64,000 bases of DNA from a virus (Duplodnaviria; Heunggongvirae; Uroviricota; Caudoviricetes), in IMG/VR virus record IMGVR_UViG_3300009008_000023, positions 1 through 64,000 of that record. One strand, written 5' to 3'. Each line of letters starts with the position of its first letter. Within the stretch, counting starts at the first letter, position 1. The notes beneath the pieces are model-generated. The model had not been told where the DNA came from. It made no database searches and saw nothing but the letters and a program-made list of their open reading frames with translations. Shown one piece after another: positions 3,412 to 41,683 of the stretch. The translations under genes were made by a program, and so were the position numbers.

Positions 3412-3516
3412 ATAAAATCTCCTTTGTTAGGTCATCAACTGCCTCTAATATAGTAATATACAGTCTTTTTGTCAAGTTCTTTCATTTTTAAGCTAAAAAA
3501 GAGGGCAACTGCCCTC

Positions 3517-4218
3517 TTATTTATGTTGTACAACGTCCTTATACAAACACCTAATACGCTCATCACGTACCGAACGCTTGTCCACGTGCATGTGACCTGC
3601 GTACCACGCTTTGTACTCTACTGATTGCATTAAATGTTCAAGAAACATGGCTGTTGGATCCTTATACTTATCATACCACCAATCGCCCGATGTTTCCTGC
3701 ACAATAATAGTTGGCATCGTATGAGTAATCATTATATCAACTTCATACCCACATTTCTCGAGATTACTAATAGCATAATCTTGTTCCTTAACTGTGGGAA
3801 TCTCCCCTGGCCACCACGAAATACCTTCAACACGCATTTCCCTATCTATTGATAGTGCACCACCAAAAGTAAACACCTTCTGATCAGCTATCTCATAAAT
3901 TTCACCTCTTCGAAGGTGAAAAATAGACGGGTAATCCTCAAAATAGCCTACTTCACCTCCAAAGAGCTGTTTTCTAGGCAATTCTTGTAATAACTCATGA
4001 TTATCATGGTTTCCATCAATGAAAAGCGTGATCCAAGGTGAATTTTCGAGCCACTGCATACCTATAGTATCAATTTTTGTCCAAACATGCCCAAAATCAC
4101 CGCAAATCACTAAAATATCTTTAGCTTTGGACATTCCAATGAATTTTGCTCTATTCCTAAAGGAGTCTAAATGCTGTTGAGCTCTACCATGCAAATCACC
4201 TGTTATCCATACCCTCAT
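3517..4218 (-). CDS. calcineurin-like metallophosphoesterase (Ser/Thr phosphatase family)
   Basis: Motifs GDLHG, GDFGHVW, GNHDNHE, GHMH typical of metallophosphoesterases. Confidence 0.75.
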   Translation of the reverse strand: MRVWITGDLHGRAQQHLDSFRNRAKFIGMSKAKDILVICGDFGHVWTKIDTIGMQWLENSPWITLFIDGNHDNHELLQELPRKQLFGGEVGYFEDYPSIFHLRRGEIYEIADQKVFTFGGALSIDREMRVEGISWWPGEIPTVKEQDYAISNLEKCGYEVDIMITHTMPTIIVQETSGDWWYDKYKDPTAMFLEHLMQSVEYKAWYAGHMHVDKRSVRDERIRCLYKDVVQHK

Positions 4219-4219
4219 T

Positions 4220-4498
4220 TTACTCCTCTACTGTCACTCCTGAGTCAAACAGGCTATACGTAATATGGGTTGGATACAAAACAACGTCGTCAGGCATATA
4301 AAAATTAGCATTAATAATTTCTCTTACTTTTTCATCCATGTTCGTATACTCACGGACTGTAATTACACGGCCACATGCACTACACTTCACATCAGTATAT
4401 GTTGATCCATCTTTTTTCAAAGATATAGTACAGAGTTGACCGCATGTTTTATGTATGTGTGTCATTTTATTCTTTCTGTTAAAGAAAAGAGGCTCCAA
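4220..4498 (-). CDS. hypothetical zinc-ribbon protein (92 aa)
   Basis: CxxC...CxxC pattern (TCGQLC...CSACG). Confidence 0.35.
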   Translation of the reverse strand: MEPLFFNRKNKMTHIHKTCGQLCTISLKKDGSTYTDVKCSACGRVITVREYTNMDEKVREIINANFYMPDDVVLYPTHITYSLFDSGVTVEE

Positions 4499-4618
4499 TT
4501 AGGAGCCCTTTCCGTGCGTCATAAGAATCCAGTATTCCTACCCTAAGAATTGGTGGATTCATTATTCTTATACCAATATTTAAACTAAAAGAGAGCCGAA
4601 GCTCTCTTTAAGGTGACC

Positions 4619-4939
4619 CTAGTCACCGTTCTTAGTAGCATTCACATCCATGCTCTCGGGAAGATCGGGCGCAATGACCTTCTTCTCAAGTTCAGGAATA
4701 TTAACGATAGTGATGTCATCATCGTCAGTGGTAGGCACGAACGTGAAATTACACAGTCCCCACTTCCTACCCTTGGCAGGTAGAGCATCGGTTACAATGC
4801 CTTTCTTAGCATTATCAAGAGTATCAGCCACGATAGGTACATCGCAGTCACACTTCTCATAATCAAACGCTAAGGCATCCTTATAACACTTGTATCCGTA
4901 AATATTAAAGTGAAAAATCTTTCCAAGATTCGCTTTCAT
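4619..4939 (-). CDS. hypothetical protein (106 aa)
   Basis: ORF in minus-strand operon. Confidence 0.35.
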   Translation of the reverse strand: MKANLGKIFHFNIYGYKCYKDALAFDYEKCDCDVPIVADTLDNAKKGIVTDALPAKGRKWGLCNFTFVPTTDDDDITIVNIPELEKKVIAPDLPESMDVNATKNGD

Positions 4940-6111: not shown

Positions 6112-8184
6112 TTATGTTCTATCTGTCTTAAATGTATTTGGTATGCTGTACGGAGTCCATGCAGCACGTGTACGTGGATGGAAAGGAACAGGGAAACCTT
6201 TATTACCAACACCAAGATGTCCCTTGTGACTATTAAAGAAGTCAACAAAATTATGTGTAGCTAAGAAATGATTATTTATCTTTGTGCCGGATAAAGACAT
6301 AGTTAAATCATTCGCACCTACGTCTGTGGAAAGAGTTACTCCAGTAGCACCGAAATTAAGCTCACACCCGCCCATCGCTGTTTCTATTTTTATTCCTGTA
6401 GCTGTGAACTCAAGTGAGCACAGTCCTAATACAGATGACATGGATATACCTGTTGGGCCTAATGTTATATTATTCCCATATATTTGGTCTTCAATTACAA
6501 TTCCAGTTTTACCGACTTTAATGTACTGGTTAAGAGGTGCAGTTGCTCCATCTACTGTTAGCTTGTGATGAAGTGCATTTATCTCTTCGGTAACCTTAAT
6601 ATCTTTTATTTCATCTTGAGTGACTTTTTCATATAGATTAACAGCATTACCTAGCTGTGTTTCCATACTTACGTTGGCAAAATTAACCTCATGCCTCCAC
6701 ATACTCAAGTCTTCAAGTAATCCAAAACCTTCATACAAGCTTGAATTAGTAGCTACATCCCTAAGCTTCTTATGATATAGTTCTAATGCAACACTCATAC
6801 GTTCATCAAATGTTGTTACACCGCTGTCCATGTGTAATCTATAGAAACTATTAACTTCGTCTATATTTATTGTATCACTAGGTAGTAGTTTACCAAATCC
6901 TTGCTCATAGTTAGTAAGCTGTAAAACATCATTGTATGTAACATTCCAAAACTCGCTGTTATTACTTAATGTCTCAGTATGATGAACATCACTAGTCGTT
7001 GTTGTCGAGTGCATACGTACACGCTTAAACGTATTAAGCGTTGTAAAAGGCTCACCCATATTAAGACGGCCCAAACTAGTAGTATAAGACTGATCAGCGT
7101 CATCTTCATTGTACTGATGCCAGCCATCACCGGGTTTTACATTAAGCCCACCACCAAAGCATAAACGTGAGCTATAAAGTTCACCAGATGTAAAGTCAAT
7201 GCCACTGTTTCTTATAAAGTCAGTACTTAAATGACCAATACGCTCCATGTATGTTAGTGGAGACGCACCATCAATACCATCTTTATCTTTTAGCCTAAAG
7301 TCATAAATTGTACCTTCAGGATATTTGAACGTCTGGAGAGCTAGCTTATCTTTCTCAATAGTGTGTTCATTTTGCCTACCAATACGCTCTTCAGTAAATA
7401 CACTTTTCTTCTTGTCAGTACCACGGCTCTGTTGTGTACGTCTCTCGTACACATGTCCTGGTATTTCACTACTATTACTGTATGCAATGTGTCCTGCTAG
7501 TTTAATAACTCTAGCATTATACTTGTCAGCTAATGGAATAAGACTTAGAAGAGATTCCTCTTCAAGTCTAAGATCATCATCCACAACGCTTTCTTGCTGC
7601 TTACCATCATATACAACATAGGAATGAAGTATCCTATCATCCTCACTAGATACTGGGTGAGAGTCATAATATCGTTTCTTATCCTTTGATCCTGGCGTCA
7701 TATTATAAATACGCTTGGCTACAATCTCAGACCTGCGCTCTTCAGCGTGTAACTCATGAGATGCCCAAGGATTCGTACTTATTAATATAACACCTTTAGG
7801 CTTAATCTTAATCAGGGGATTATAATAACCACCAGCAGCAAGTATAATCTCGCCCTCTTCACGACCATCAAGCATGAATCTACCATCCTGTCCATACTCA
7901 CTAGTCCCAGCATAATACGATAATATTACATACTCATCACGTAAGCCTAGACGTGCACATATGACACGCTGCCCTTTACGTGGAATTCCAAACATTCCAC
8001 TACCTAATGTGTCCTTAGGTATTGGACTTGGTAATTCCATAGGAATAGCCGCAGACATACTAATATTATCTGTCTGGTCATCTAATAACACATACACTTT
8101 GGTACTTTTACCAAGATCTACCTCAGTAACGGTGCCTAGGTGCACCGTTATTGATTCGCTTCCTAATTGATCAAAATATCCCAT
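6112..8184 (-). CDS. baseplate central spike protein (gpV/VgrG-like) with C-terminal beta-helix
   Basis: N-terminal GTVTEVDLGKSTKVYV OB-fold signature as in P2 gpV / Mu gp45; Gly/Thr-rich repetitive C-terminus. Confidence 0.45.
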   Translation of the reverse strand: MGYFDQLGSESITVHLGTVTEVDLGKSTKVYVLLDDQTDNISMSAAIPMELPSPIPKDTLGSGMFGIPRKGQRVICARLGLRDEYVILSYYAGTSEYGQDGRFMLDGREEGEIILAAGGYYNPLIKIKPKGVILISTNPWASHELHAEERRSEIVAKRIYNMTPGSKDKKRYYDSHPVSSEDDRILHSYVVYDGKQQESVVDDDLRLEEESLLSLIPLADKYNARVIKLAGHIAYSNSSEIPGHVYERRTQQSRGTDKKKSVFTEERIGRQNEHTIEKDKLALQTFKYPEGTIYDFRLKDKDGIDGASPLTYMERIGHLSTDFIRNSGIDFTSGELYSSRLCFGGGLNVKPGDGWHQYNEDDADQSYTTSLGRLNMGEPFTTLNTFKRVRMHSTTTTSDVHHTETLSNNSEFWNVTYNDVLQLTNYEQGFGKLLPSDTINIDEVNSFYRLHMDSGVTTFDERMSVALELYHKKLRDVATNSSLYEGFGLLEDLSMWRHEVNFANVSMETQLGNAVNLYEKVTQDEIKDIKVTEEINALHHKLTVDGATAPLNQYIKVGKTGIVIEDQIYGNNITLGPTGISMSSVLGLCSLEFTATGIKIETAMGGCELNFGATGVTLSTDVGANDLTMSLSGTKINNHFLATHNFVDFFNSHKGHLGVGNKGFPVPFHPRTRAAWTPYSIPNTFKTDRT

Positions 8185-8321: not shown

Positions 8322-8564
8322 GTGACTATGACACAGCTAAACCAAAAGCATGATTCCATACATGCCAAAATCCAAGATTTATTTACCAACTGGTTCAAAG
8401 ATATGGATGCATACCGACTAGGCACTACTATTGGGGCTACACTCGCTATCTTGGGCTTCATTTTAATGGTACCTGGATTTGCTCGATTAGTTGGGTGGGG
8501 ATTTACCCTAGCTGGCGGATTGCTCGCAGGTTCGTGCCTCGTAGTCCTACTCGAACGCGAGTAG
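8322..8564 (+). CDS. small membrane protein (80 aa)
   Basis: Two predicted TM helices; first gene after promoter motif at 8227. Confidence 0.4.
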   Translation: MTMTQLNQKHDSIHAKIQDLFTNWFKDMDAYRLGTTIGATLAILGFILMVPGFARLVGWGFTLAGGLLAGSCLVVLLERE

Positions 8565-8580
8565 GATTTTTAGGGTAAAT

Positions 8581-9204
8581 ATGATACTTAATGAACTTAC
8601 TCACGAGTGTATAATATATTCGCAGTTACCTAATCATGTACCAGACAAAAGTGCTGATGACATCTTTCCGCCAACAGTATCTACTAACCCACATCTAAAT
8701 GGCACTACCATTATTGTTAGTAAGAGAAATACAGACAAAACACACCTCACTCCCAAGGAAATGATACCAGCTACGCGTAACACAATGGGAAATATTACTG
8801 CGTACAGCACAGATAAACCAAGTGTGGATACACCTGTACATCTACGACTGTATCAAGCAATGCCCAACCTCAACTTCTTCATTCATGGCCACGCATACAT
8901 TCATGATGTACCAACCACTGAGCATTACTACGCCTGCGGTGACCTTCGTGAAGCTAATGAACTATTCAAACTTATCTCAACTAATGCTAATGTTTCCTCA
9001 CAAGTAGGTGCCATCAACTTATGTAATCACGGCTTTTTTCTTTACGCCGAAACTTTAGAGCAGTTGCAAATTCTAGTTAACTCGCTTAAGTTCACAGAAA
9101 AACCTATTGCGGAACAAATTTCTTCTGATGACATGATAATACATCAGCAAACTCAAGTAGAATTTAAACGTAAAGGACATACGATACACAAGGACATTGT
9201 ATGA
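8581..9204 (+). CDS. hypothetical protein (207 aa)
   Basis: ORF; stop overlaps next start (ATGA). Confidence 0.4.
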   Translation: MILNELTHECIIYSQLPNHVPDKSADDIFPPTVSTNPHLNGTTIIVSKRNTDKTHLTPKEMIPATRNTMGNITAYSTDKPSVDTPVHLRLYQAMPNLNFFIHGHAYIHDVPTTEHYYACGDLREANELFKLISTNANVSSQVGAINLCNHGFFLYAETLEQLQILVNSLKFTEKPIAEQISSDDMIIHQQTQVEFKRKGHTIHKDIV

Positions 9205-9515
9205 AGTTAGCAAAGAATACTAATTCTCGTCAAACTATAATTTGTTGTGACATATGTAAAGCGATTATACCTAAAGTAGCACAGACGGAGCCTAACAATC
9301 ATTTTTCTCCTCGATCGTTTGATTATGGGGTCTTCCAAGACATTATTTCCGAAGCCGATATTCATGATATCTGTGCAAACTGCTTCTCTACATTATTAGC
9401 TGAAAAGAAGTTTTATGAAAATCTTATGACTGAGCAAATAACATTCTTGTTACATACTATGGATCCAGCAGCAACTATGTGCTTAGATCCTGCCGCCAAA
9501 AGGAAGACAAAATGA
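9201..9515 (+). CDS. hypothetical Cys-rich protein
   Basis: CDICK...CANC motif. Confidence 0.35.
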   Translation: MKLAKNTNSRQTIICCDICKAIIPKVAQTEPNNHFSPRSFDYGVFQDIISEADIHDICANCFSTLLAEKKFYENLMTEQITFLLHTMDPAATMCLDPAAKRKTK

Positions 9516-9748
9516 ATAATGACACATGTGATGTGTGTGGTTCAATAATCTCTAATGATGACGCCACTACATATGCACAAGACTCATTTGCGCAAGTTCA
9601 TGTTGCAACATTGATATGCGATGAACTCAACGTCGAATTTTGCTGTGACCATTGTTTTCTTATGTTCACGGAGATGTATGACATGCTTATAGAACTCCTC
9701 ACTTTAAAACTCAAGCAAATTAAAGTGGAAGGAAAGGCATTAAGATGA
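9512..9748 (+). CDS. hypothetical zinc-finger protein
   Basis: CDVCG...CDHC; ATG at 9512 overlaps upstream stop. Confidence 0.35.
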   Translation: MNNDTCDVCGSIISNDDATTYAQDSFAQVHVATLICDELNVEFCCDHCFLMFTEMYDMLIELLTLKLKQIKVEGKALR

Positions 9749-10029
9749 GTGAAAACGACCGACAGCCTCAATCATTCATATCCACAGGCGAGTCATGTGA
9801 TATATGCTTGTACGAGCCTAAAACCAACGCCACCGCAGAGCAGTGCAAATCTATACACTCTCTAGAAGATGGTCCACTCAAGGACGCATTAGAAAACTTT
9901 GACGCTATCACAGGTGATATAAAACATATATGCCCTAATTGCAAGAAAACCCTCACTAACAAAGCCACTTCATTGCTCGAACAGCTAGCATTAGATCTTG
10001 ACAATGAGATCTGGGAATTGGAGTATTAA
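9745..10029 (+). CDS. hypothetical zinc-finger protein
   Basis: CDICL...CPNCK motifs. Confidence 0.35.
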   Translation: MSENDRQPQSFISTGESCDICLYEPKTNATAEQCKSIHSLEDGPLKDALENFDAITGDIKHICPNCKKTLTNKATSLLEQLALDLDNEIWELEY

Positions 10030-10042
10030 GTATTATGTCAAC

Positions 10043-10083
<41 letters not shown>

Positions 10084-10329
10084 CTATCTACTCAACACTC
10101 AATACTCACATGCTATGTCCACATTTCCACCACATTCACGGCATAACACACTCACAAAACTCATAAAAACACTCACTCGGCCCACAATTTAAAAAGTGGC
10201 CGGACAGACGGCCACAGTACAAGTCCGTAACTCACATCATCCCAAGTACTTATGTGGCCACCCATATCAGTGGCCGACACGCTAAAGCACAAAAACATAA
10301 ACAACTCAATCATAACACTTTACAAATGT

Positions 10330-12322: not shown

Positions 12323-12655
12323 ATGGTTGGTATTATCGTTCTCACCGTATTCATATACATAGGGTACCTCTTAATTAACTACTTAATGAAAGATAAGAAA
12401 CTATGCCCTACCTGTAAGTCAGATTGGATTTATACTCGTGATAGCGACAACAATCCTCTATCTTACAGTTGTTTCCCACCTTATGTACGTACGTGTACAA
12501 ACTCCAACTGTCTACGCCAAGAAAAGCGTAGCTCAATGTCAAGTGATGTCCCTTGGGACTGGAAACTCACGATCCCGTCAAACCTCGCTAAGAACCCCAG
12601 TACTATGGAGGAAGTAAAGTGTCAAGCGAAAACCAAGACAACCAAGAAAAAGTAA
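12323..12655 (+). CDS. hypothetical membrane-anchored Cys-rich protein
   Basis: N-terminal TM helix; CPTC...C...C motifs. Confidence 0.35.
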   Translation: MVGIIVLTVFIYIGYLLINYLMKDKKLCPTCKSDWIYTRDSDNNPLSYSCFPPYVRTCTNSNCLRQEKRSSMSSDVPWDWKLTIPSNLAKNPSTMEEVKCQAKTKTTKKK

Positions 12656-12855
12656 CTACTGTAACTACTACCCACAAGATCAAGATCACTGATGTTATAC
12701 TATCTAGTCATCAGAGTAACATCTTTGATATTGGGGGATTTGTTAACACTGTAGTAGAGCCATCCGGGTATCCCTACTTTGAGTGGAATGGGTGGGTATA
12801 TGATGCTAATGACATGCTTTTTCGTCAATTAGTCAGATACGAGGAGCTTCTATAA
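12619..12855 (+). CDS. hypothetical protein (78 aa)
   Basis: ORF overlapping upstream gene end. Confidence 0.3.
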   Translation: MSSENQDNQEKVTTVTTTHKIKITDVILSSHQSNIFDIGGFVNTVVEPSGYPYFEWNGWVYDANDMLFRQLVRYEELL

Positions 12856-12997
12856 TGTCACCCAGAATCTCTAACACCATTCGTAGACGATGAAGTGGAG
12901 TCAACATAAGAGGCACTGTCCTCATAGAAACAAGGACAACTTTTGTATGTACAAGACCGCTTGAAAAAGATGGATACAATACCTAGCAATTAACTAA

Positions 12998-13019
12998 AAT
13001 ATGGGTATAAGAATAATGT
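12998..13019 (+). promoter_or_regulatory. phage promoter motif (aaaatATGGGTATAAGAATAATG)
   Basis: Full consensus incl. downstream ATG; upstream of NAD salvage genes. Confidence 0.6.
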
Positions 13020-13188
13020 GATGAGTATGTTACGTTCACTCTGAGTCGCACCCCTCAGCACTGAATTGTAACAAGCTCCAACCTTCATTCCATGCCATCA
13101 CTAGTCCACTCTCAGCGTCCGTTCAAGTACTACCTCCAGGCTTAGAGACAACTTGATTGTCTCAGTCCTACCAGCGCTTTACATGTTT

Positions 13189-13482
13189 GTCAACGAGAGT
13201 GGGTTCGGCTCGTCCGCACTCCCTCTAGCACATGAACTATGTAACCGCAACTTGAACGATTACGTGGGGTTTGGGCTGAGGGGCAAGCCTATGTGCTTGT
13301 CCCTTTACGTTAAAATTAGTTCAATGCAAAAGCTTATTAAAAAGAATCTTAAAAATGTTGCTGATCTCGTTAAAGAAGAAGACGGTTTAAATAAAGCAAT
13401 AGTAGACTGGCACAAGAACAAAAAAGTCAAAAATAAACCCAGCGATACCACCGGCGACGAAACTAAAGACAGCGACACCTAA
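13189..13482 (+). CDS. hypothetical Lys-rich protein, start uncertain
   Basis: ORF within leader upstream of natV-like gene; weak RBS. Confidence 0.2.
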   Translation, partial: VNESGFGSSALPLAHELCNRNLNDYVGFGLRGKPMCLSLYVKISSMQKLIKKNLKNVADLVKEEDGLNKAIVDWHKNKKVKNKPSDTTGDETKDSDT

Positions 13483-13500
13483 CCCTAGCAAGGAGACAAC

Positions 13501-14553
13501 ATGGCAACCAATGTAGGAGTAATCATTGGCCGATTTCAGGTTGATGATCTACACCCGGCTCACAGAGCCATTATTGATGAAGTGAAGGACAAACACTCAC
13601 AGATCCTCGTGTTCTTGGGGTGTCCGGCAACATATCTCAGTCAGCGTAACCCTCTGGATTTCTCTACGAGACGTCGTATGATTCAGAGTCATTATCCTGA
13701 TGTGGATGTCTTCCAGATTAAAGACCACAAGCTCGATAGTATCTGGTACCAGGAGCTTGACCGTCGTATTCGAGAGATTGAACCGCATGCTGAAATTACG
13801 TTGTACGGCGGGCGTGATTCTTTTGCTGACTACTATGATGGAGCATTCCCGGTTGAAGTTCTCACAGATATCGAGAACTCTTTCTCTGGCACTGAAATAC
13901 GTGAAAGAGTTGGAAATACTCCTCTCTCAACTCCTGACTTTCGTGCTGGCGTGATCTATGCTATTGCTAATCGTTTTCCTCTTACCCACTTAACAGTCGA
14001 TATAGGGCTAATAAACCCATATCACTCGTCCCCTACAAAGAACTCAAGAATTCTGCTAGGTAGAAAAGAAGGTGATAGGCAGTGGTGTTTCCCAGGCGGG
14101 TTTGTCGATGCAAAAGACGCATCACTCGAAGACGCTACAAGGCGTGAACTCTTTGAAGAGACTGGGTGTCACACTAGCAGTGTGCAAATGTGTAAGTATG
14201 TAGCAAGCTTGGAAGTTGTGAATGATTGGCGCTACAAGAATGAGGTTGATCGTATCATGACGAATGTGTTCCTAATGGAACTTCCACCTAATTCACCTTA
14301 TCTTAAGAACAATGATCAAGGCGAAGAAGGTACAGGCTTACTATCAGAAAATAAACTAAAAGCCAGTGATGATCTTGCAGAAATTCAATGGTTTGATTTG
14401 AAAGAATTTAGCGAGACTCCACATCATTTTGTTACTAATGATCTCATTACAAAGGCTCATCAGCCAATCATGCAAGTCTTTATCGCACATCTCAAAGACA
14501 ACGAGCTCTACGGGCTCGCCAACGATAAACCTAAACCACAGGATTGTGATTAA
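13501..14553 (+). CDS. natV: bifunctional NMN adenylyltransferase / Nudix hydrolase (NadM/NatV-like)
   Basis: N-terminal GRFQ(V/P)xHxxH cytidylyltransferase HxGH-type motif; C-terminal Nudix box GGFVDAKDASLEDATRRELFEETG; strong RBS AAGGAG. Confidence 0.85.
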   Translation: MATNVGVIIGRFQVDDLHPAHRAIIDEVKDKHSQILVFLGCPATYLSQRNPLDFSTRRRMIQSHYPDVDVFQIKDHKLDSIWYQELDRRIREIEPHAEITLYGGRDSFADYYDGAFPVEVLTDIENSFSGTEIRERVGNTPLSTPDFRAGVIYAIANRFPLTHLTVDIGLINPYHSSPTKNSRILLGRKEGDRQWCFPGGFVDAKDASLEDATRRELFEETGCHTSSVQMCKYVASLEVVNDWRYKNEVDRIMTNVFLMELPPNSPYLKNNDQGEEGTGLLSENKLKASDDLAEIQWFDLKEFSETPHHFVTNDLITKAHQPIMQVFIAHLKDNELYGLANDKPKPQDCD

Positions 14554-14997
14554 TGGACCAGTTAAATGATAACCTAGCTGTCATGACCGACAGCTACAAA
14601 GCAGGACATTTTCGTCAGTACCCTGCCGGTACGACGTCAATTATGTCTTATTTTGAATCCCGTGGAGGTTTACCTTACACGGTGTTCTTTGGTCTCCAGT
14701 ACATCATCAAAAAGCACCTTCTTGGTCGGGTGATGACTCAGAAGAAGCTCACTGCAGCACAAATTTTTTGGAACGAGCACTTTGGCGATAATCAGCCTTG
14801 TGGTGAAGATATATTCAATCATAAGGGTTGGCAGCACATCATCGATAATCATGATGGGCATCTGCCTATTCGCATCCGAGCGGTCCCTGAAGGGACTAAG
14901 GTACCTTCATCAAACGCCCTCATTACAGTAGAGAATACTGATCCTGAGTGCTTCTGGCTTACCAATTGGTTGGAAACGTTGTTAGTACAAGTATGGT
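14553..14997 (+). CDS. nadV: nicotinamide phosphoribosyltransferase (NadV/NAMPT), exon 1
   Basis: MTDSYKAGHFRQYP...DGHLPIRIRAVPEG...TDPECFWLTNWLETLLVQVW matches the NAMPT N-terminal region; ends at T14997 before in-frame TAG. Confidence 0.8.
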
Positions 14998-16022
14998 AGA
15001 AATGCCCTTTATGGTGGTAACACCATATCGAAACTTCTCTAATTGCTGGGATATCCTAATTATAGGACGATCAGCAGCGAAGCCTAATCTAATTAGTTCT
15101 TGCATTAGTAAGTATTATTTGTTATATTTACTATAGTTACTAACTAATTAGGAGTTTTTTTATGATAGGAAAACAATTTGGAAACGATCTTGTTATAGAT
15201 AGAAAAGTTGAACAAAGATCATATGGTAAATTAACCCTTTACCTTGTTGAGTGCCAAAAATGTAGCAACAAAAAATGGGTTCAAAAATCCGCCCTAGTTA
15301 ATGGAAATATAAAGTGTAGAGTAGGTATATGTAACAGACAAGTACCTGATTTCACTAATCAAATATTTCATTATTGGACTGCTTTAGAATATGTAAAAGA
15401 TAAAAAATCACGTGGATGGTTATGGAAGTGTAAGTGTAAATGCGGGAATGTGGGATATGTCCGCACTCATACATTACAATCTGGACAATCAAAGTCTTGT
15501 GGTTGTTATATGAAAGAACAACTGTCTCAACGTCAAACACTTACTGACTATATAGGACCAAAACGTGAAATTTATAGAAATTACAATAGAGCCTCTAATA
15601 AGAGAAATTATGAATTTTTATTAACTGAAGAACAATTTTTTGAACTCATTGAACAGCCATGTTTTTACTGTGGAATAGAAAAGTCAATGGTTTTTTATCG
15701 ACAAAACTATAGATACAATGGTGTTGATAGAGTAGACAATTCTATAGGATACACCATAAATAACACAGTGTCATGTTGTAAAAATTGTAATAACTCTAAA
15801 AGTACACTATCTCAACAAGAATGGTTTAATTGGCTTAAACAAGTTTATACCTATCAGAAAGCTCAAGGAACGTTCAACGACTAGTCGAAAGACGTACACC
15901 CAAGTGGGTGGAAATGGGAAGGCTCCTATTAGTTTAGGAGTTTGATATAGTCTGATCTACATAGTAATATGTAGCAGCTCACAAGAGCGGGCTGAGATTA
16001 ACGACCTCAGTTAAACACAATG
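14998..16022 (+). mobile_element. group I intron (1025 nt) interrupting nadV, carrying an HNH homing endonuclease ORF
   Basis: Joining T14997 to A16023 restores the frame and the conserved NAMPT motif VQ(V/S)W-YP(T/I)T(I/V)ATNS; 5' exon ends in U, intron ends in G. Confidence 0.7.
15162..15884 (+). CDS. intron-encoded HNH homing endonuclease
   Basis: C-terminal GVDRVDNSIGYTINNTVSCCKNCNNSK HNH motif; own RBS; AT-rich codon usage. Confidence 0.8.
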   Translation: MIGKQFGNDLVIDRKVEQRSYGKLTLYLVECQKCSNKKWVQKSALVNGNIKCRVGICNRQVPDFTNQIFHYWTALEYVKDKKSRGWLWKCKCKCGNVGYVRTHTLQSGQSKSCGCYMKEQLSQRQTLTDYIGPKREIYRNYNRASNKRNYEFLLTEEQFFELIEQPCFYCGIEKSMVFYRQNYRYNGVDRVDNSIGYTINNTVSCCKNCNNSKSTLSQQEWFNWLKQVYTYQKAQGTFND

Positions 16023-16978
16023 ATCCTACTACAATCGCCACCAATAGCCATATGGCAAGAACTAACATTAACCAGTATCTTGAAGATACTGGTGACCCCA
16101 CACTCATTGACTTCAAGCTTCACGACTTCGGTTACAGGGGAGTATCATGTGATGAGCAGGCCGGCATTGGTGGAATGGCTCACCTCACCTCCTTCATGGG
16201 TACTGATACTGTTAAAGGTATCATAACCGCGCAACAGTATTACAATGCACAGATGTGTGGATTTTCCATTCCGGCCAGCGAACACTCAACCATGACTTCA
16301 TGGGGGAAGGATCATGAGCTTGATGCTTTCCGTAACATGCTCGATCAACATCCCACAGGACTAGTTGCATGTGTGAGTGATTCATTTGACATCTATCATG
16401 CATGTGAACAGTACTGGGGCACTGATCTTAAAGATCAAATCCTCGGAAGAGACGGCACTCTTGTCGTCCGTCCTGACTCTGGTGACCCCATCGAAGTAAC
16501 AGAGAAAGTGTTTGAAATTCTCTGGAAACAGTTTGGTGGAACCACCAATGAGAAGGGATACCGTGTTCTTGATCCCCACATCCGCATGATTCAGGGCGAC
16601 GGCATAGACTTAAATATGCTGGCTATGATTCTTGCCAACTTTAAGGACAAGATGATTTCGGCTGATAACATCGCGTTTGGGTCTGGTGGGGGACTTCTCC
16701 AGCAGTTCAATCGTGATACTGGTCGCTTTGCTTTCAAGTGCTGTCACGCTATTATCAATGGCGAAAGCCGCGACATTTTTAAAAGCCCTATTGCGGGTAG
16801 TAAGCCTTCGAAGAAGGGTTATCTCACTCTACAGAAGAATGATGGTGGCGCGTTCGAGACCATCAATGATAGGGTATTACACTACTCTGATGAAAACTTA
16901 CTTGAGCCGGTTTATGAGAATGGCGTCCTTTTAAAGGATCAAACATTCGCTGAAATAAAAGCTCGTATCTTGGTATAA
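16023..16978 (+). CDS. nadV: nicotinamide phosphoribosyltransferase (NadV/NAMPT), exon 2
   Basis: YPTTIATNSH...KLHDFGYRGVS...GSGGGLLQ... collinear with NAMPT central and C-terminal regions. Confidence 0.8.
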
Positions 16979-17030
16979 GAATAGAGTAAGTAATCTTTCT
17001 TACGCGAAAAGAAGGAGGTGCAATTAACTA

Positions 17031-17315
17031 ATGATTTTTTTCGCAAATATCTGGTACATGTTTCAGGCTTTCAGTATTATTGCAATTCTTTGGGTTGGTG
17101 GGTGGCTAATTTACAAATATGCCATTCGTCCAGCCAAGGAAAAGTCTGAAACCCTCAGTGCAGCTGAGGCATACGAAAAGGCAGTTCGAGATCGAGAGGA
17201 GGCCGAGGTCGAGCTGGCTGAAGCTGAAAAGCTTGGAAAGAAGGAGACTAAAGACTTCGAAAGAAAGTTGAAAGATCCCCGTAAGTTGGAAGACAAAGCA
17301 CGTAAATTAAAGTGA
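17031..17315 (+). CDS. small membrane protein with charged coiled-coil tail (NfeD/YqiJ-like partner of the SPFH protein)
   Basis: N-terminal TM helix; E/K-rich C-terminus; immediately upstream of the SPFH gene. Confidence 0.4.
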   Translation: MIFFANIWYMFQAFSIIAILWVGGWLIYKYAIRPAKEKSETLSAAEAYEKAVRDREEAEVELAEAEKLGKKETKDFERKLKDPRKLEDKARKLK

Positions 17316-17349
17316 TACATTCTATTCCCTACTCACTTTAAGGAGTGAA

Positions 17350-18636
17350 ATGCAGCTGAAACATGTTGTCATTGGTTTACTCGTCATTGGTCTTGCCATT
17401 ATTGGCAGCCTGGCGGGCAAACTCGTTGAACCCCTTGATTCCGAGCAGATGATGATGACGCAGGATCCCATTGATGGTGACTTGCATTTTCATAATACTG
17501 CCGGAATGAAAGTGCAGCGCTTGGGGTCTCTGGAGAAGTACGACAAATCTTCTAGGGCATATTTTTCCGCCGACCCGGATCTGGGTGGGCATGAGGATCA
17601 GTCCCAGTCGATTCGATTCAATGATAAAGCCTCCGCCATGCTGAGCTACTCGTTCCAGTATTTCCTGCCTCAGGACGAAAGTCACATGAAGATGCTCTTC
17701 AGTGACTATCGTACTCCTGACAGGATCTTCCATGAGGTCATCAAGTCTTCAGCACAGAAGGCAGTGTATATCACTGGCCCCTTGATGAGTTCTGTGGAAT
17801 CAGCAGCTGAAAGACGTCCTGAGCTTCGTAGTTTACTTGAAGATCAGATTCAGAATGGTCCATACAAAACTAAAGCTCGAGAAGTCAAGATGCCTGATCC
17901 TATTACGGGTGAAGAGGTTACTCTTACGGTTATGGAAATTATAGAGGATCCTACCGCCCCTGGTGGTTTTGCTCGTCTCGAAGAGTCTACACTGAACAAG
18001 TACGGCATACGTATTGAAAACTTGTCCATTGATAAGATTGGATATGCTGATGCTGTAAATGCTCAGATTGAGGCTCAGCGAGAAGCCTTCATGAAAGTTC
18101 AGACTGCTAAGGCGGATGCCAAGGCTGCTGAACAGCGCACACTGACTGTTGAACAGGAGGGTCTGGCATCTGCTGCTCAGGCTAAATGGGAACAGGAAGT
18201 GATCAAAGCCCGCGAAGTTACCAAGGCCGAACAGGAAAAGGCTGTTGCTGAAACTCAGGCTGCTAAGAAGCTTGAGGTTGCCAAGTTCGACCGAATGGCT
18301 GCTGCTGAAGAAAAGCAGGCTAATATCCTTCGCGGTGAGGGTGAAGCAGAGAGAAAGCGCCTAGTCCTAGAAGCTGATGGTGCTCTTGCACAGAAATTAG
18401 CTACTTATGCTGAAGTACAGCGTTACTGGGCCGATGCTGCAGCTCGTTACCAAGGTAACTGGGTTCCCAATATTGTCATGGGGGCAGGAGCGTCCACGGA
18501 CGATCCTAATAACCGTGACATGGCATCTGCTGGCTTTGGAATTCAAGATTTTATCAATATCGTAGGAATGAAAACACTCAATGATGTGAGTGTTGACATG
18601 ACTATGTCCAAGGGAACTTCTACACAGGCTCCCTAA
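17350..18636 (+). CDS. SPFH/band-7 (flotillin/YqiK-like) membrane protein
   Basis: N-terminal TM helix; long Ala/Glu/Gln/Lys-rich coiled coil typical of flotillin-like proteins; GC-rich host-like codon usage. Confidence 0.6.
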   Translation: MQLKHVVIGLLVIGLAIIGSLAGKLVEPLDSEQMMMTQDPIDGDLHFHNTAGMKVQRLGSLEKYDKSSRAYFSADPDLGGHEDQSQSIRFNDKASAMLSYSFQYFLPQDESHMKMLFSDYRTPDRIFHEVIKSSAQKAVYITGPLMSSVESAAERRPELRSLLEDQIQNGPYKTKAREVKMPDPITGEEVTLTVMEIIEDPTAPGGFARLEESTLNKYGIRIENLSIDKIGYADAVNAQIEAQREAFMKVQTAKADAKAAEQRTLTVEQEGLASAAQAKWEQEVIKAREVTKAEQEKAVAETQAAKKLEVAKFDRMAAAEEKQANILRGEGEAERKRLVLEADGALAQKLATYAEVQRYWADAAARYQGNWVPNIVMGAGASTDDPNNRDMASAGFGIQDFINIVGMKTLNDVSVDMTMSKGTSTQAP

Positions 18637-19100: not shown

Positions 19101-20012
19101 ATGAAATTAAAGGAATTAGTGGATGCGCGTGATTCAGAGTTTTCACGAACTCTTCAAACGACTTTAAACAAGTACTCAGTACTTTCAAAAGCAGAAGAAG
19201 AGCCCATTGCTAAAAAGGCATTTGAAGGCTGTGAAACTTCAAGAGACTTGCTAGTTTTTCACAATCTTCGATTTGCAATTAAGTGGGCCTTAGACTCTCA
19301 TCAGGGGGCTGGTATAGAGTTTACTGATGCTACATCAGTTTGTATTTTAGGCCTTATTAAGGCATCAAAACGCTTTGATTACCAACAAAACACAAAGTTT
19401 ATTTCATATGCAGTTTGGTGGATGAGGGCCGGTATAACTCAGGCATCAAGAACATCGGACACAGTACTGCTTCCTGCTAATCGTTACACTCAGAGAATGA
19501 AAATACGCACTTCACGTTCTAAACTGTACCCATTGCTTGAGCGTATTCCAACAGTGGATGATATCTCACGCGATACTGGAATCGACGTTGAATCAATTAG
19601 ACTCATTAATAGTCACCATGTTATTAGTATTAATGGTCCCATACAAGGACCGGATAAGTCGGAAAGAGATGACCCTAGATTCCAGAGCGAAGATTTTGTC
19701 TCTTCTTGTCTTCACCCTGACTATAGTGGTTATAACAAACTCGCAGCCCTCAATGCCTTAATTAATACACAAACCAGAGAGCTTATAAAGGAAATAACTC
19801 TCAGTAAAGTGGATCAGCGTGAAGCTTTCATCTTAGATCGACGCTTTGGGTTAGGGTGGTTAAATCCAAGGCATAACGAACCACAGTCTTTAGAGAGTGT
19901 CGGTAAGGAATTGGGGATTAGTCGTGAGCGCGTTCGCCAGCTTCAAGCCAGGGCTATCTCTAAAATTGAAGGTTCATTGGAACGGCTAGATATTACTTCT
20001 ATGGCTAGTTAA
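19101..20012 (+). CDS. sigma-70 family RNA polymerase sigma factor
   Basis: Region 2 signature FISYAVWWMRAGITQA (cf. FSTYATWWIRQAITRA) and region 4.2 LESVGKELGISRERVRQLQARAISKI helix-turn-helix. Confidence 0.75.
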   Translation: MKLKELVDARDSEFSRTLQTTLNKYSVLSKAEEEPIAKKAFEGCETSRDLLVFHNLRFAIKWALDSHQGAGIEFTDATSVCILGLIKASKRFDYQQNTKFISYAVWWMRAGITQASRTSDTVLLPANRYTQRMKIRTSRSKLYPLLERIPTVDDISRDTGIDVESIRLINSHHVISINGPIQGPDKSERDDPRFQSEDFVSSCLHPDYSGYNKLAALNALINTQTRELIKEITLSKVDQREAFILDRRFGLGWLNPRHNEPQSLESVGKELGISRERVRQLQARAISKIEGSLERLDITSMAS

Positions 20013-23308: not shown

Positions 23309-23474
23309 ACATCCGACAGAGCAGGAAATTAAAAAGTGGTGCTCATGTAATATGTGTGGGCATCACTTTATTAAAGCTCCGAAAAAGAGCTCTAACCCCA
23401 TTTTAAAAGGAAAAAGATTTATTTGTCCAGAATGTAAATGGGAAAACACTCGTATGGTTCCAATAAATTATTAA
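23283..23474 (+). CDS. hypothetical zinc-ribbon protein (63 aa)
   Basis: CSCNMCGH...CPECK. Confidence 0.3.
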   Translation: MLGEQKLSKHPTEQEIKKWCSCNMCGHHFIKAPKKSSNPILKGKRFICPECKWENTRMVPINY

Positions 23475-23482
23475 GGAGATAT

Positions 23483-24739
23483 ATGGAATTAGTAATTACA
23501 ACAGAAAAATTTCCAATAAAACTATGGGCACGTGAGTCAGAAATAGAAGAAAGTGCATTACAACAATTAAAAGATGTGGCTAATATGCCATTTATACATA
23601 AGCATATTGCTGTAATGCCTGACGTACATACAGGTCTTGGTGCAACCATTGGGGCTGTTATTCCTACTAATGGAGCAATAATTCCTAGTGCAGTAGGCGT
23701 AGATATTGGGTGTGGTATGCACGCTATCAAACTCAATCTTACGTATAAAGCATTTATTCAACACTTAGTAAATAACGTGTTTCCTAACATTGTTTACAAT
23801 GACGATCTTACTCGCAATCTAATTGAGTCTGCAATTCCGCACGGACGAACAGATTATGGTGGAACAAATGATGTAGGCGCATGGCCAAAACAACGTATTC
23901 CTTTATCTGTAAAGGCAGTATACTATGAGAAACTTAATTTCGAAGTTACGAAGCATGAGATTCTTCGCAGACACCCAGGCTTACTTGCAGGATTTGTTAA
24001 CAGCGTTCGTCATCTTGGCACTCTTGGCACTGGCAATCATTTCATCGAATTAGCTAAAGATGAGAGTGATAGGGTGTGGCTTATTATCCATTCGGGCTCA
24101 CGTGGAATAGGTAATAGAATAGGTACATACTTTATTAAGCTTGCAAAAAAGATTAATAAGAAATGGCATATCGATCTACCTAATCCTGATCTAGCGTACT
24201 TCCCACAAGACACTCAAGAGTTTAAAGACTACTGGGAATGTATGAAGTGGGCACAAAAGTTTGCTCGCCTCAATCGTGAGCTAATGGCACAAAGTGTGCT
24301 AAATGAACTTTGGATAGCTTCTAATGAAATAGAAAAAGAGTATGACTGCCACCATAATTTTGCTGAGTGGGATCACCAAGGGAACACTAATTTTATAGTA
24401 ACACGTAAAGGAGCCACTCGTGCCAAGAAAGACGAGATCGGAATCATCCCTGGTTCAATGGGTGCAAAGTCATATATTGTTACCGGTAAGGGCAACATGG
24501 ATTCTTTTGCTTCTTGTTCTCACGGCGCAGGTAGAAAAATGTCTCGAAAGGTGGCTAACGCTACCTTCACAGCCGAAGACCTGGAAGAACAGACGCGTGG
24601 AGTCTCTTGTAGAAAAGATGGAGACTTATGTGATGAAGCGCCTGGAGCGTACAAGTCAATTGATGAAGTTATATCCTTACAAGAAGATCTAGTTGACATA
24701 AAACATACACTTAAACAGTTTGTTTGTGTGAAAGGCTAG
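23483..24739 (+). CDS. rtcB: RNA-splicing ligase RtcB (3'-phosphate/5'-OH RNA ligase)
   Basis: MPDVHTGLGATIG, GTLGTGNHFIE, CHHNF and SCSHGAGR signature motifs; RBS AAGGAG before ATG 23483. Confidence 0.9.
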   Translation: MELVITTEKFPIKLWARESEIEESALQQLKDVANMPFIHKHIAVMPDVHTGLGATIGAVIPTNGAIIPSAVGVDIGCGMHAIKLNLTYKAFIQHLVNNVFPNIVYNDDLTRNLIESAIPHGRTDYGGTNDVGAWPKQRIPLSVKAVYYEKLNFEVTKHEILRRHPGLLAGFVNSVRHLGTLGTGNHFIELAKDESDRVWLIIHSGSRGIGNRIGTYFIKLAKKINKKWHIDLPNPDLAYFPQDTQEFKDYWECMKWAQKFARLNRELMAQSVLNELWIASNEIEKEYDCHHNFAEWDHQGNTNFIVTRKGATRAKKDEIGIIPGSMGAKSYIVTGKGNMDSFASCSHGAGRKMSRKVANATFTAEDLEEQTRGVSCRKDGDLCDEAPGAYKSIDEVISLQEDLVDIKHTLKQFVCVKG

Positions 24740-24740
24740 T

Positions 24741-25190
24741 ATGGATAACACTGACACAGAAATGAAACGTAAATCAAATAACTTTGCGATTGAACAATTG
24801 AACCAACATCCAGTAAAGTTTACTGTTAATTTTTTAGGTAAGTACTCAGGAGCGTATTTAGATTTAAGTGCTGTTAATAAAGAAGCTGCTGTTTGGCAGA
24901 TAACTTTCTTAGCTCACTTAGTAAATTTCCCTGTACTAGCAATGATGTATGAACAAGATCAATTTACACCGATAATATTTGTTACGCCTTCAGAAACGTT
25001 GCGTGAAAAATATAAGAACATACCCACAAAATTTGATGTGTGGATGAATGACAGAATCCAACAGGGTAACCTCCCAATGGTAATAGAATCAATTGAGTTT
25101 CTAAATGATGAGATTGATAAAGAGTTTGGAAAGCAACCTCGAATGTTTAAAAAAGCTGAAGTTGAGCGTGATCCCAAATGCGAAAATTAA
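24741..25190 (+). CDS. hypothetical protein cotranscribed with rtcB (possible RtcB accessory factor)
   Basis: Start overlaps rtcB stop; no recognised motif. Confidence 0.35.
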   Translation: MDNTDTEMKRKSNNFAIEQLNQHPVKFTVNFLGKYSGAYLDLSAVNKEAAVWQITFLAHLVNFPVLAMMYEQDQFTPIIFVTPSETLREKYKNIPTKFDVWMNDRIQQGNLPMVIESIEFLNDEIDKEFGKQPRMFKKAEVERDPKCEN

Positions 25191-25819
25191 AAATAATCTC
25201 TGGTGGACAAACAGGTATTGACCAAGGTGCGTTAGATGGACTGGTAAGTTTTTCACGAAATCTTATTACTGAAGGATATGATCATTATCTTGATGGTGCA
25301 GACCCTTTACAAATATACGGGATGCTGGGTATTGGAGGGACAGCACCTAAAAATTATATGACAGAAACAGGGCCTGCATTTTTCTTGCAGACTGAGTACA
25401 AACTAAAGGAGTCTTATAGTTCTTACTATCCCGTACGAACTGAACGTAATGTAATTGATGGAGACGGTACATTAGTATTCCAATTTAAAGAATCAAGGGG
25501 TTGTAGACTAACAATTAATTTGTGTAAGAAACACAAAAAACCTTACTTAGTTAGCCCTGAATCAATTGATGAAATCTATAATTGGATAAAAGAAAATAAT
25601 ATAGAAGTTTTAAATGTTGCTGGGCATCGACAAAGCGCTTTTGATAAGCGAGACATGCACTACCATGCCAAAATAAACATTATGAAACTTCTGGGTTATA
25701 TGTACTTTGGCTCTTCATTTATGAAAAGAAGTGAGTTTCAAGGCGCTAGTTCATTACCTTACAAAAAGGAGCCAGACAATGGCAAAACTACAGCCGATGA
25801 TGAAGTTGACAAACATTGA
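25178..25819 (+). CDS. SLOG-family (YpsA/MoCo-carrier-like) nucleotide-binding protein
   Basis: N-terminal ISGGQTGIDQGALD motif characteristic of the SLOG/YpsA fold. Confidence 0.4.
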   Translation: MRKLKIISGGQTGIDQGALDGLVSFSRNLITEGYDHYLDGADPLQIYGMLGIGGTAPKNYMTETGPAFFLQTEYKLKESYSSYYPVRTERNVIDGDGTLVFQFKESRGCRLTINLCKKHKKPYLVSPESIDEIYNWIKENNIEVLNVAGHRQSAFDKRDMHYHAKINIMKLLGYMYFGSSFMKRSEFQGASSLPYKKEPDNGKTTADDEVDKH

Positions 25820-31694: not shown

Positions 31695-32168
31695 ATGGCA
31701 AAACAACGAAAATACACAGATGACCAGCTTAGATCAGCAGTTAAGTCAAGCCGATCAATACGTCAAGTTCTTGGTAAACTTGGACTAGCTCAAGCAGGTG
31801 GAAACTATACTTCGGTTACAAACCAGATCGCTAGGTTGCAACTTGATTCATCTCACTTTTTGGGCCGTGGGCATCGAAAAGGATCAACAACTCCAGTTGT
31901 TCCGAAACGCCCATTGTCTGAAGTGTTAGTAAAGCATTCTTCATATCAATCGTATAAGCTTAAGAAGCGATTGATTAAAGAGGGTTTGCTAAAACAAAAG
32001 TGTGATAGTTGTAATTTAGTAACTTGGTTACAAACAGACATACCTTTAGAACTGTACCATAAAAACGGTGTAAAGTCTGACAATCGAATTGAAAATCTCC
32101 AACTGTTGTGTCCAAACTGCCACGCTCTTACAAACACGTATAGAGCAAAGAACTCTAAGAAAGTGTAG
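31695..32168 (+). CDS. HNH endonuclease (intron-encoded, within tRNA-Leu intron)
   Basis: C-terminal ENLQLLCPNCHALTN HNH motif. Confidence 0.75.
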   Translation: MAKQRKYTDDQLRSAVKSSRSIRQVLGKLGLAQAGGNYTSVTNQIARLQLDSSHFLGRGHRKGSTTPVVPKRPLSEVLVKHSSYQSYKLKKRLIKEGLLKQKCDSCNLVTWLQTDIPLELYHKNGVKSDNRIENLQLLCPNCHALTNTYRAKNSKKV

Positions 32169-32351: not shown

Positions 32352-32378
32352 GCCCAAAAAATGGGTATAAGAAAAGTG
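32352..32378 (+). promoter_or_regulatory. phage promoter motif (ccaaaaaATGGGTATAAGAAAAGTG)
   Basis: Consensus match, GTG in place of ATG. Confidence 0.55.
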
Positions 32379-41200: not shown

Positions 41201-41683
41201 ATGAGTGATACAAAAGCAATACACGTATTATCAGGAGGCTTTGATCCTCTACATGTAGGCCATCTACGTATGATAAAAGCTGCACATGCCTTGCAAGACC
41301 ATTGCCGGTATGGTAGCCAGCTAATTATTGGATTGAATTCTGATGATTGGCTAAGACGTAAAAAAGGTGCTAATTTTATAAACTTTGCACACCGTGCAGA
41401 ATTAATCGGTGGTTATAAAGAAGTTGATGAAGTTGTTTCGTTTGATGATTCAGACGGCACAGCTAAAGAGTTATTACGTATACTTCGAGCAAGATTTCCC
41501 GCAGATGAGTATAATATAATTTTTTGTAATGGTGGAGATCGAGTAGAAGGACATGTTCCTGAAGGAGAGTTAGCCGAAGAGTTAGATATTGAGTTTCTGT
41601 ACGGGATAGGTGGTGGAAAGATAGAAAGCTCTTCAGAACTGGTGACTAAATATTTTGCCGAAATCAATAAAAATAGCGCCTGA
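41201..41683 (+). CDS. nucleotidyltransferase of the HxGH cytidylyltransferase-like superfamily
   Basis: SGGFDPLHVGHLRMI (HxGH) motif near N-terminus. Confidence 0.6.
   Translation: MSDTKAIHVLSGGFDPLHVGHLRMIKAAHALQDHCRYGSQLIIGLNSDDWLRRKKGANFINFAHRAELIGGYKEVDEVVSFDDSDGTAKELLRILRARFPADEYNIIFCNGGDRVEGHVPEGELAEELDIEFLYGIGGGKIESSSELVTKYFAEINKNSA

Follow-up and report, generated by a model that had tools for sequence, protein, structure and literature searches.

The stretch of DNA analysed here, to which we refer as the window, is a 64-kb segment (positions 1 to 64,000) of a tailed-phage record in the IMG/VR collection of viral contigs (IMGVR_UViG_3300009008_000023), taken out of a contig of at least 116 kb, and our subject is a group of genes on its plus strand, between positions 13501 and 16978, that appears to encode a salvage pathway for nicotinamide adenine dinucleotide (NAD+). 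Four open reading frames (ORFs) lie in this interval, at 13501-14553 (350 amino acids, aa), 14553-14999 (148 aa), 15162-15884 (240 aa) and 16052-16978 (308 aa). In Pfam, the first of these matches NUDIX and CTP_transf_like, the second NAMPT_N (E 3e-33) and the fourth NAPRTase (E 3.3e-56), and the third has no match. An earlier note on this DNA, which had placed a bifunctional nicotinamide mononucleotide (NMN) adenylyltransferase (NMNAT)-Nudix protein and a nicotinamide phosphoribosyltransferase (NAMPT) at 13501-16978, was correct in both gene content and coordinates. Because NAMPT_N and NAPRTase fall on separate ORFs, nadV, the gene for NAMPT, is in two pieces about 1 kb apart.

The first gene of the group (13501-14553), which we call natV-like, is preceded by an AAGGAG ribosome-binding site ahead of its ATG, and on the evidence of Pfam, PDB 2qjt and Foldseek matches its product consists of an NMNAT domain (about residues 1-160) followed by a Nudix domain (about residues 165-330). 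Its stop codon overlaps the start of nadV by one base (TGATG at 14553), and the two genes are predicted to be translationally coupled. As an explanation of the whole locus we consider it probable, with good confidence, that this is an operon for NAD+ reconstitution of the type known as NAD+ reconstitution pathway 2 (NARP2), carried by a large, uncultivated phage of marine origin, in which a NadM-type NMNAT-Nudix protein is paired with a NAMPT, and in which nadV is interrupted by a group I intron of subgroup IA with an HNH endonuclease gene in its P6 loop.

The window is identical to a 116-kb metagenome scaffold in the European Nucleotide Archive, and a Joint Genome Institute contig from another sample is 99.96% identical to it, the intron-bearing nadV allele having been recovered from at least two samples. 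On both source contigs, gene callers report nadV as two fragments with a hypothetical protein between them. A megablast comparison of 13000-17400 with GenBank phages gave a match limited to about 50 nt of the intron core, and on this ground the phage has no close sequenced relative in GenBank.

The divided nadV gene

When read as a NAMPT sequence, the 148-aa ORF runs to ...L-E-T-L-L-V-Q-V-W and then meets a stop codon, and the frame of the last ORF extends back to ...P-T-T-I-A-T-N-S. In group I introns the 5' exon ends in U and the intron ends in G, and under these rules a single junction restores the sequence W-Y-P, namely U14997 joined to A16023 with positions 14998-16022 removed. Exon 1 (14553-14997, plus strand, ending in U14997) would supply NAMPT residues 1-148 and the first base of the Tyr149 codon, after which the intron is inserted (V-Q-V-W|Y-P), and exon 2 (16023-16978, plus strand, with the frame Y-P-T-T-I-A-T-N-S opening at A16023) would supply residues 149-466.

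The spliced NadV of 466 aa aligns with human NAMPT (6tac) over residues 7-462, with an E value of 1.3e-150 and no gap at the junction, and scores 583 bits against the NCBIfam equivalog NF006629, for which the cut-off is 405. It keeps all of the motifs HDFGYRG, GTDTV, SEHST, RPDSG, QGDG and FGSGGG, which presumably carry the catalytic residues of human NAMPT. The earlier note had proposed to express the region in spliced form, and rightly so: nadV is a two-part gene split by 14998-16022, whose joined product matches human NAMPT from end to end. By its sequence, the joined product is predicted to be a full-length Nampt of the KVP40 NadV clade, as used in the definition of NARP2.

The junction can also be compared with an uninterrupted gene. 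The closest relative for which DNA was available, represented by the contigs L006-L008, has an uninterrupted nadV of 479 aa whose product is 78% identical to that of the window. At the DNA level, the intron-less allele of L006, TGGTATCCTACTACAATCGCCAC, equals the end of the window's exon 1 followed by the start of its exon 2, and intron-less nadV of the L006 type reads TTAGTTCAGGTTTGGTATCCTACTACAATCGCC.

Group I intron and predicted HNH endonuclease gene

The 1025 nt between the exons (14998-16022, plus strand) were assigned to a group I intron of subgroup IA type from a sub-threshold match to RF00028, from covariation and from the intron-less allele. On the plus strand of the window, P3 (15034-39 with 15916-21), P4 (15043-48 with 15072-77) and P6 (15083-85 with 15866-68) are 100% paired in 32 relatives, P2 (15011-26) covaries in the family, and P7 (15879-83 with 15948-52) is the pseudoknot partner of P3. 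P7.1 (15884-93) and P7.2 (15897-910) show compensatory changes in relatives and are located between P7 and the 3' strand of P3, an arrangement that is a hallmark of subgroup IA and for which the source is reportedly Michel and Westhof (1990). P1 (14995-97 with 15004-06), P5 (15055-59 with 15064-68), P8 (15923-40) and P9, P9.1 and P9.2 (15957-74, 15977-88 and 15992-16010) were assigned by placement on the window, and the terminal G (16022) follows from the group I rule. Two alternative helices were discarded: P6a (GTTCTT with AAGGAAC), which is in competition with the P6 that follows from homology and covariation, and a different P1 (exon GUAUGGU with ACCAUAU at 15022-28), which would make the splice-site pair A-U and abolish the covarying P2.

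To quantify the covariation, we aligned the ORF-deleted window intron with 32 compact full-length relatives. In this set 88% of cells were paired, 35 of the 55 pairs showed double changes, and cells with double changes numbered 315, against 102 in shuffles, with slid controls paired in at most 46% of cells. Among 77 distinct 3' halves, the corresponding values were 89% of cells paired and 458 double-change cells against 134 after shuffling, slid controls reaching at most 45%. These data support the predicted helices P2 to P9, including the P3/P7 pseudoknot.

A 28-nt pattern of the intron core occurs in 105 stretches of IMG/VR, and the 3' core is near-identical to introns of Vibrio phage D181, of the Pseudomonas YH6/Pa_WF01 group (one of them annotated as Intron_gpI, inside an RNA polymerase gene) and of Bacillus phage LBC2. 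Among phage subgroup IA introns with homing endonucleases are those in td, nrdB and nrdD of T4 and in the DNA polymerase gene of SPO1, the last with the HNH enzyme I-HmuI. Like them, the window intron has a core of helices P1 to P9 that includes P7.1 and P7.2, accommodates an endonuclease ORF in the loop of a peripheral helix, is inserted in a highly conserved codon of a gene for nucleotide metabolism, and is polymorphic for presence or absence among relatives; unlike them, it has nadV as its host gene, its nearest ribozyme relatives being located in Vibrio, Pseudomonas and Bacillus phages within genes other than nadV. As a separate observation, a 146-kb viral contig from the same sample (L089, metagenome 3300007511) carries at 7222-7581 an ORF-less intron of the same family, with an RF00028 score of 104 bits, together with a permuted transfer-messenger RNA gene (RF04321, 84 bits).

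Some properties of the intron speak against a functional ribozyme as drawn here. RF00028 matches its two halves at 25.6 and 17.1 bits and does not reach the gathering score of 50. P1 consists of three pairs only (GGU/GCC), that is U14997-G15004 and two G-C pairs, with several relatives having GGGU/GCCC; the P1 columns are unaligned across relatives (28% of cells paired), and P1 is therefore without covariation support. A convincing P10 was looked for in the intron and not found. The short P1 and the low scores, together with the two fragments given by gene callers, are what one would expect if the insertion had decayed or lost the ability to splice, in which case no NAMPT would be made and the module would be non-functional. 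We consider such a dead nadV highly unlikely. Both exons are intact and in frame with all conserved NAMPT motifs present, and the core helices of the ribozyme are likewise all intact and conform to those of a strongly covarying family. The low RF00028 score is explained by the ORF-bearing insert of about 780 nt in the P6 loop, which splits the model, and ORF-less members of the family score 74-104 bits. Moreover, a nadV whose product is 46% identical (that of the contig L075, described below) has an intron that retains this P1 and this splice site, and TGGT/GCCC, as read by eye, is apparently also used by another family member, L063. With a functional intron, the production of active NadV would depend on self-splicing of the transcript, with U14997 paired to G15004 in P1 and G16022 as the terminal nucleotide.

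The 240-aa ORF in the P6 loop (15162-15884, plus strand) is predicted to encode a homing endonuclease of the HNH (beta-beta-alpha-metal) type. Its product matches HNH families of PHROG with E values from 1e-19 to 1e-12, including PHROG 374 'HNH endonuclease' (1.4e-19) and PHROG 1035 (3e-18), and Pfam and NCBIfam scans gave no HNH match. A weak alignment (E 0.013) over CxxC...GVDRVDN...CxxCN is of the type of PacI, an unusual HNH enzyme. The gene is provided with a ribosome-binding site of its own, AGGAG, located 8 nt upstream. At its other end, the final codons and the stop (the TAG of GACUAG) coincide in part with the 3' strand of P6, J6/7 and P7. In GenBank phage records, no copy of the endonuclease exceeds 39% identity. 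Elsewhere on the plus strand of the window there are three further HNH-type ORFs, all free-standing (31695-32168, 40498-41175 and 53617-54087), two of them (40498 and 53617) among the tRNA genes and the third (31695) some 1.6 kb upstream of the first of these.

Related introns and endonucleases were found in or beside nadV in other contigs. A distant natV-nadV pair (NatV 35% and NadV 46% identical to those of the window) is present on two IMG/VR contigs, L075 and L076, and its nadV is split at the identical nucleotide (CAAGTATGGT|...G|ACCCGATT) by an intron with the same internal guide sequence, the TGGT/GCCC P1, the same P2 and an HNH gene 44% identical to ours. A second relative of the endonuclease (P0124, 46% identical) is encoded between the NAMPT_N and NAPRTase ORFs of L116, a 147-kb contig on which the genes are ordered differently. 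The intron there (in the 2425-4714 locus) is 862 nt long, follows a U, has a terminal G and on removal leaves an intact nadV ORF of 475 aa; it is inserted between codons (LLKC|HVW), 10 nt upstream of the window site. A third (P0129, 43% identical) is encoded by a free-standing gene about 100 nt upstream of an intact nadV in 17 contigs, including L118 (914-3229). Finally, on a contig whose NatV is 68% identical (P0002, from JGI 3300072015), the gene calls divide nadV into two ORFs (157 and 331 aa) with 204 nt and no endonuclease between them, an interruption that, judged from these gene calls, is probably an ORF-less intron.

The existence of an intron-less allele, the occupancy of the same site in a distant nadV, and the presence of related HNH genes in or beside nadV together support the view that the nadV intron is mobile. 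Under classical homing, the endonuclease would cut intron-less nadV alleles during co-infection, and the intron would be copied into them. The free-standing P0129-type gene resembles, by its position alone, F-CphI at the cyanophage psbA gene, a free-standing homing endonuclease that is described as targeting an intron insertion site (Zeng, Bonocora and Shub 2009, as cited in PMC5107563): it stands upstream of an intact nadV, and its relatives are intron-borne inside nadV. In Vibrio phage D479, the gene immediately preceding nadV was considered as a further relative of the endonuclease and rejected as unrelated. Full-text literature searches returned no report of an intron in nadV or NAMPT.

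NMNAT-Nudix protein and upstream region

The assignment of the 350-aa protein rests on matches to NadM, the bacterial enzyme that is both an NMNAT and an ADP-ribose pyrophosphatase (2qjt, from Francisella, and 2qjo), with which it shares its two-domain architecture and to which its best sequence and fold matches belong. In Pfam, NUDIX is matched with an E value of 1.9e-13 and CTP_transf_like weakly, though above threshold, with 4.1e-5. PDB 2qjt matches both domains (E 3.9e-10), and an AlphaFold2 model of the protein (predicted local distance difference test score 88, predicted TM-score 0.82) gives 2qjt and 2qjo as top Foldseek matches over both domains (E 7e-18). In contrast to this common architecture, identity to the NadM structures is 17-19%, the relative orientation of the two domains in the model differs from that in 2qjt and 2qjo (root-mean-square deviation about 13 Å), GRFQ-x3-LHxxH stands in place of NadM's GRFQPFHxGH, and the Nudix box is longer by one residue.

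The residues expected of a nucleotidyltransferase are in place. The motifs (H/T)xxH and SxTxxR are present as H18-P-A-H21 and S129-G-T-E-I-R134, with H18, H21 and R134 fully or almost fully conserved among 33 homologues, and the same degree of conservation is seen for GRFQ-x3-LHxxH, LYGGRDSF, SGTEIR, DFRAG and the Nudix residues RE..EE. Of the Nudix box (consensus Gx5Ex7REUxEExGU), RELFEETG is present and conserved; the spacing upstream of it is greater by one residue and the Glu of Gx5E is replaced by Asp, both as in NUDT16/X29, the spacing being GGFVDxxDxSLE-x4-RELxEExG.

BLASTP of the protein against the NatV of the KVP40-like Vibrio phage D479 yields an E value of 2e-9 and 23% identity, with homology across both domains. 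There are 21 GenBank phage records that match at 1e-5, the best being those of huge uncultured phages that keep natV and nadV adjacent, and more than 580 metagenomic members make up the subfamily. When metagenome contigs were scanned with the five closest NMNAT-Nudix proteins in alignment, no relative emerged, and a scan of viral contigs with the single protein found only relatives with 36% identity. The protein represents a distinct, divergent and uncharacterised subfamily of NadM. The label 'NatV-like' used in the earlier note is apt for the architecture alone, given 23% identity to a KVP40-type NatV and a failure to reach any NCBIfam equivalog cut-off.

That failure is one of the points that weigh against an NMNAT. 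Every cut-off for the bifunctional NadM equivalogs is missed, with a best score of 67 bits (NF003786, cut-off 397; all cut-offs at least 354), and there is a 2-residue insertion between GRFQ and HxxH. D479 NatV likewise falls under the NCBIfam cut-off, at 256 bits. Taken with the 17-19% identity to NadM structures and the GGFVDxxDxSLE-x4-RE spacing of NUDT16, the missed cut-offs and the insertion would fit a protein that combines some other nucleotidyltransferase with a NUDT16-like Nudix domain acting, for example, on ADP-ribosylated targets or NAD-capped RNA, the NAD+ itself then being made by host NadD or NadR. This we regard as quite unlikely, since bifunctional NadM proteins give the best matches across both domains, in sequence as well as in fold, since family members show little or no variation in HxxH and SGTEIR, and since the gene is consistently paired with nadV, to which it is predicted to be translationally coupled in the window.

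The pairing can be followed beyond the window. natV and nadV are adjacent in at least six phage lineages (L006-8, L009/10, L075/76, LR756502, LR756504 and phage SCTP-2), and a bacterial member of the family (P0076, at 3243-7216 of L120, a 1.55-Mb contig) is encoded in an operon of the order NrtR, NMNAT-Nudix, NadV and phosphoribosyl pyrophosphate (PRPP) synthetase (Prs), where it occupies the position of NadM. The arrangement NrtR-NadM-NadV-Prs is the classic NrtR-regulated salvage operon. The coupling to nadV, the recurrence in at least six phage lineages and the bacterial NrtR operon thus provide support from genomic context for a predicted NMNAT function. An RtcB gene lies near the bacterial operon on the opposite strand. 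A second, cytidylyltransferase-like nucleotidyltransferase in the window (41201-41683, plus strand, 160 aa) was considered as an NMNAT and rejected as a generic RfaE-II-like protein, its best matches being to RfaE domain II and to PPAT-type enzymes.

Upstream of the natV-like gene, a 20-nt motif (TAAAAWATGGGTATAAGAAT) recurs in the window, with copies of at most three mismatches at 4564-4583 on the minus strand and at 12995-13014, 32355-32374 and 54388-54407 on the plus strand, four in all against 0.01 expected; some copies are located 3' of terminator-like hairpins. The motif that had been claimed as a promoter at 12998 is real as a sequence and corresponds to the copy at 12995-13014 (TAAAATATGGGTATAAGAAT). 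A generic sigma-70 scan of 12600-17400 gave no enrichment (13 sites against 11.4 expected). The phage encodes a sigma-70-like protein at 19101-20012, and the 20-nt motif is probably a phage-specific promoter.

The motif is followed on the plus strand by what we describe, from its fold z-score and guanine-plus-cytosine (GC) content, as an orphan structured leader RNA (13015-13290), and by a small ORF of 63 aa (13291-13482) predicted by the gene callers on the source contigs. The fold of 13015-13310 has a minimum free energy of -100.9 kcal/mol and a z-score of -4.53 on the plus strand, against -1.48 on the minus strand, and the small ORF has its ATG within a leader hairpin of 10 bp (about 13278-13306). 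What had been called a 480-nt GC-rich leader is in part just that, with 50% GC over 13020-13300 (39% in the window) and structure over 13015-13310, and in part a predicted ORF, which takes up the last 190 nt or so before natV. The small ORF has no family match and no homologue in related loci, a search of the leader against Rfam at E<=10 returned noise only, and similar leader DNA was found neither by blastn in phage records nor in the related loci that were fetched. We propose that the operon would be transcribed from the phage-specific motif at 12995 through this structured leader of about 280 nt.

Next to another copy of the motif, the plus-strand segment 54408-54830 comprises about 420 nt with no convincing ORF, two terminator-like hairpins and a fold z-score of -1.5, and may be a non-coding RNA. 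Homology between it and the leader was rejected, as the two share one 11-mer and their alignment score was reached by 9 of 200 shuffles.

In a more speculative vein, nadV could be a preferred landing site for one lineage of introns and HNH genes, which would occupy two neighbouring intragenic sites and also stand free beside the gene, making NAD+ reconstitution dependent on splicing, and the leader could act in cis as a novel regulatory RNA that controls NAD+ salvage, perhaps by sensing a metabolite. We hold this combination to be unlikely.

Proposed role and genomic setting

Going by characterised homologues, NadV would convert nicotinamide and PRPP to NMN, which the NMNAT domain would adenylate to NAD+, and the pathway would raise the NAD+ level of the infected cell or restore it, for instance once defence effectors have cleaved NAD+. 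The spacing of the Nudix box is NUDT16-like; by comparison with NadM, the probable substrate of this domain is ADP-ribose or a related dinucleotide, which it would hydrolyse. The core of the earlier reading, an NMNAT-Nudix protein and a NAMPT that lead from nicotinamide through NMN to NAD+ as in NARP2, is supported by homology, with a full-length spliced NadV and a NadM fold.

A close known counterpart of this module is the NadV-NatV salvage pathway of Vibrio phage KVP40, which is said to have been described by Lee et al. in 2017. The window resembles the KVP40 NARP2 in combining a NAMPT with an NMNAT-Nudix protein in a large phage, its NadV being 44% identical to that of the KVP40-like D479. 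It differs in that natV and nadV are adjacent and coupled, whereas in D479 they are 3.7 kb apart, in that the NMNAT-Nudix protein, with 23% identity to D479 NatV, belongs to another subfamily, and in that nadV carries an intron. An Adps partner would be the mark of NARP1. Neither a Prs nor an Adps family was detected among the ORFs scanned, which were 44 of the 56 window ORFs of at least 120 aa; weighing against the NARP2 assignment, PRPP synthetase, Adps or other NAD genes could be present elsewhere on the contig, beyond the 64-kb window.

When NARP2 was defined, the KVP40 genes abolished defence by type I Thoeris and DSR2, and the pathway was found in about 1% of sequenced phages (Osterman et al., 10.1101/2024.02.11.579819). 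A counter-defence role for the present module is inferred by analogy, carried over from these KVP40 experiments. The module could instead be a general metabolic booster that provides more NAD+ for nucleotide metabolism and for the replication of phage DNA whenever the phage infects, whatever the immunity of the host, an explanation that we regard as a serious contender with somewhat less than an even chance. It draws on the finding that NARP2 consumes PRPP and that it raised NAD+ also in cells lacking a defence system (10.1101/2024.02.11.579819), on the use of the same gene pair as an ordinary NrtR-regulated salvage operon in a bacterium, and on the presence in the window of genes for ThyX, dCMP deaminase and adenylosuccinate synthetase. 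Such a booster would be compatible with counter-defence; the KVP40 pair, when assayed, abolished Thoeris and DSR2 defence, and sequence alone cannot separate the two roles.

Downstream of nadV, a small membrane ORF (17031-17315) and an SPFH/Band-7 gene (17350-18636) follow on the plus strand (Pfam Band_7, PHROG 11908). The order natV, nadV, small ORF and Band_7 is kept in L006 and L007, and also in a 202-kb contig of a more distant lineage (that of P0027), which has in addition a 179-aa ORF between natV and nadV. In L006, where the small membrane ORF and the SPFH gene occupy 8545-10168, 3' of nadV, the latter is apparently frameshifted.

A SLOG-family gene at 25178 had been suggested as a further member of the NAD or ADP-ribose module, for which we find no support. 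Its product (25178-25819) is a cpYpsA SLOG protein (Pfam E 3.5e-28), and the gene overlaps start-to-stop with an ORF at 24741-25190 (149 aa), which is itself preceded by RtcB at 23438-24739. Because of this overlap after RtcB, and because it lies 8 kb from the NAD module, the SLOG gene is assigned to an RNA-repair operon and not to the module. The window also contains an RNA ligase gene (43919-44965) and 20 tRNA genes (33.7-54.3 kb), and together with the plus-strand RtcB-SLOG operon (23438-25819) these suggest a toolkit for tRNA repair and supply.

The NAD+ module itself adds little to what is known, NARP2 being already established. What is distinctive here, and of moderate interest to specialists, is the divergent NadM subfamily and, above all, the mobile group I intron with its HNH gene in nadV, to which the earlier note had given no weight. 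Because annotation splits the gene into two fragments and a hypothetical protein, surveys of anti-defence genes in phages that rely on an intact Nampt ORF will miss or mis-score intron-bearing alleles. The large NMNAT-Nudix subfamily, with its NUDT16-like Nudix spacing, has a substrate worth testing. nadV can be added to the few phage genes that group I introns have colonised, and the occurrence among related contigs of intron-bearing, intron-less and free-standing-endonuclease states, together with a probable ORF-less-intron state, offers a ready natural system in which homing may be studied.

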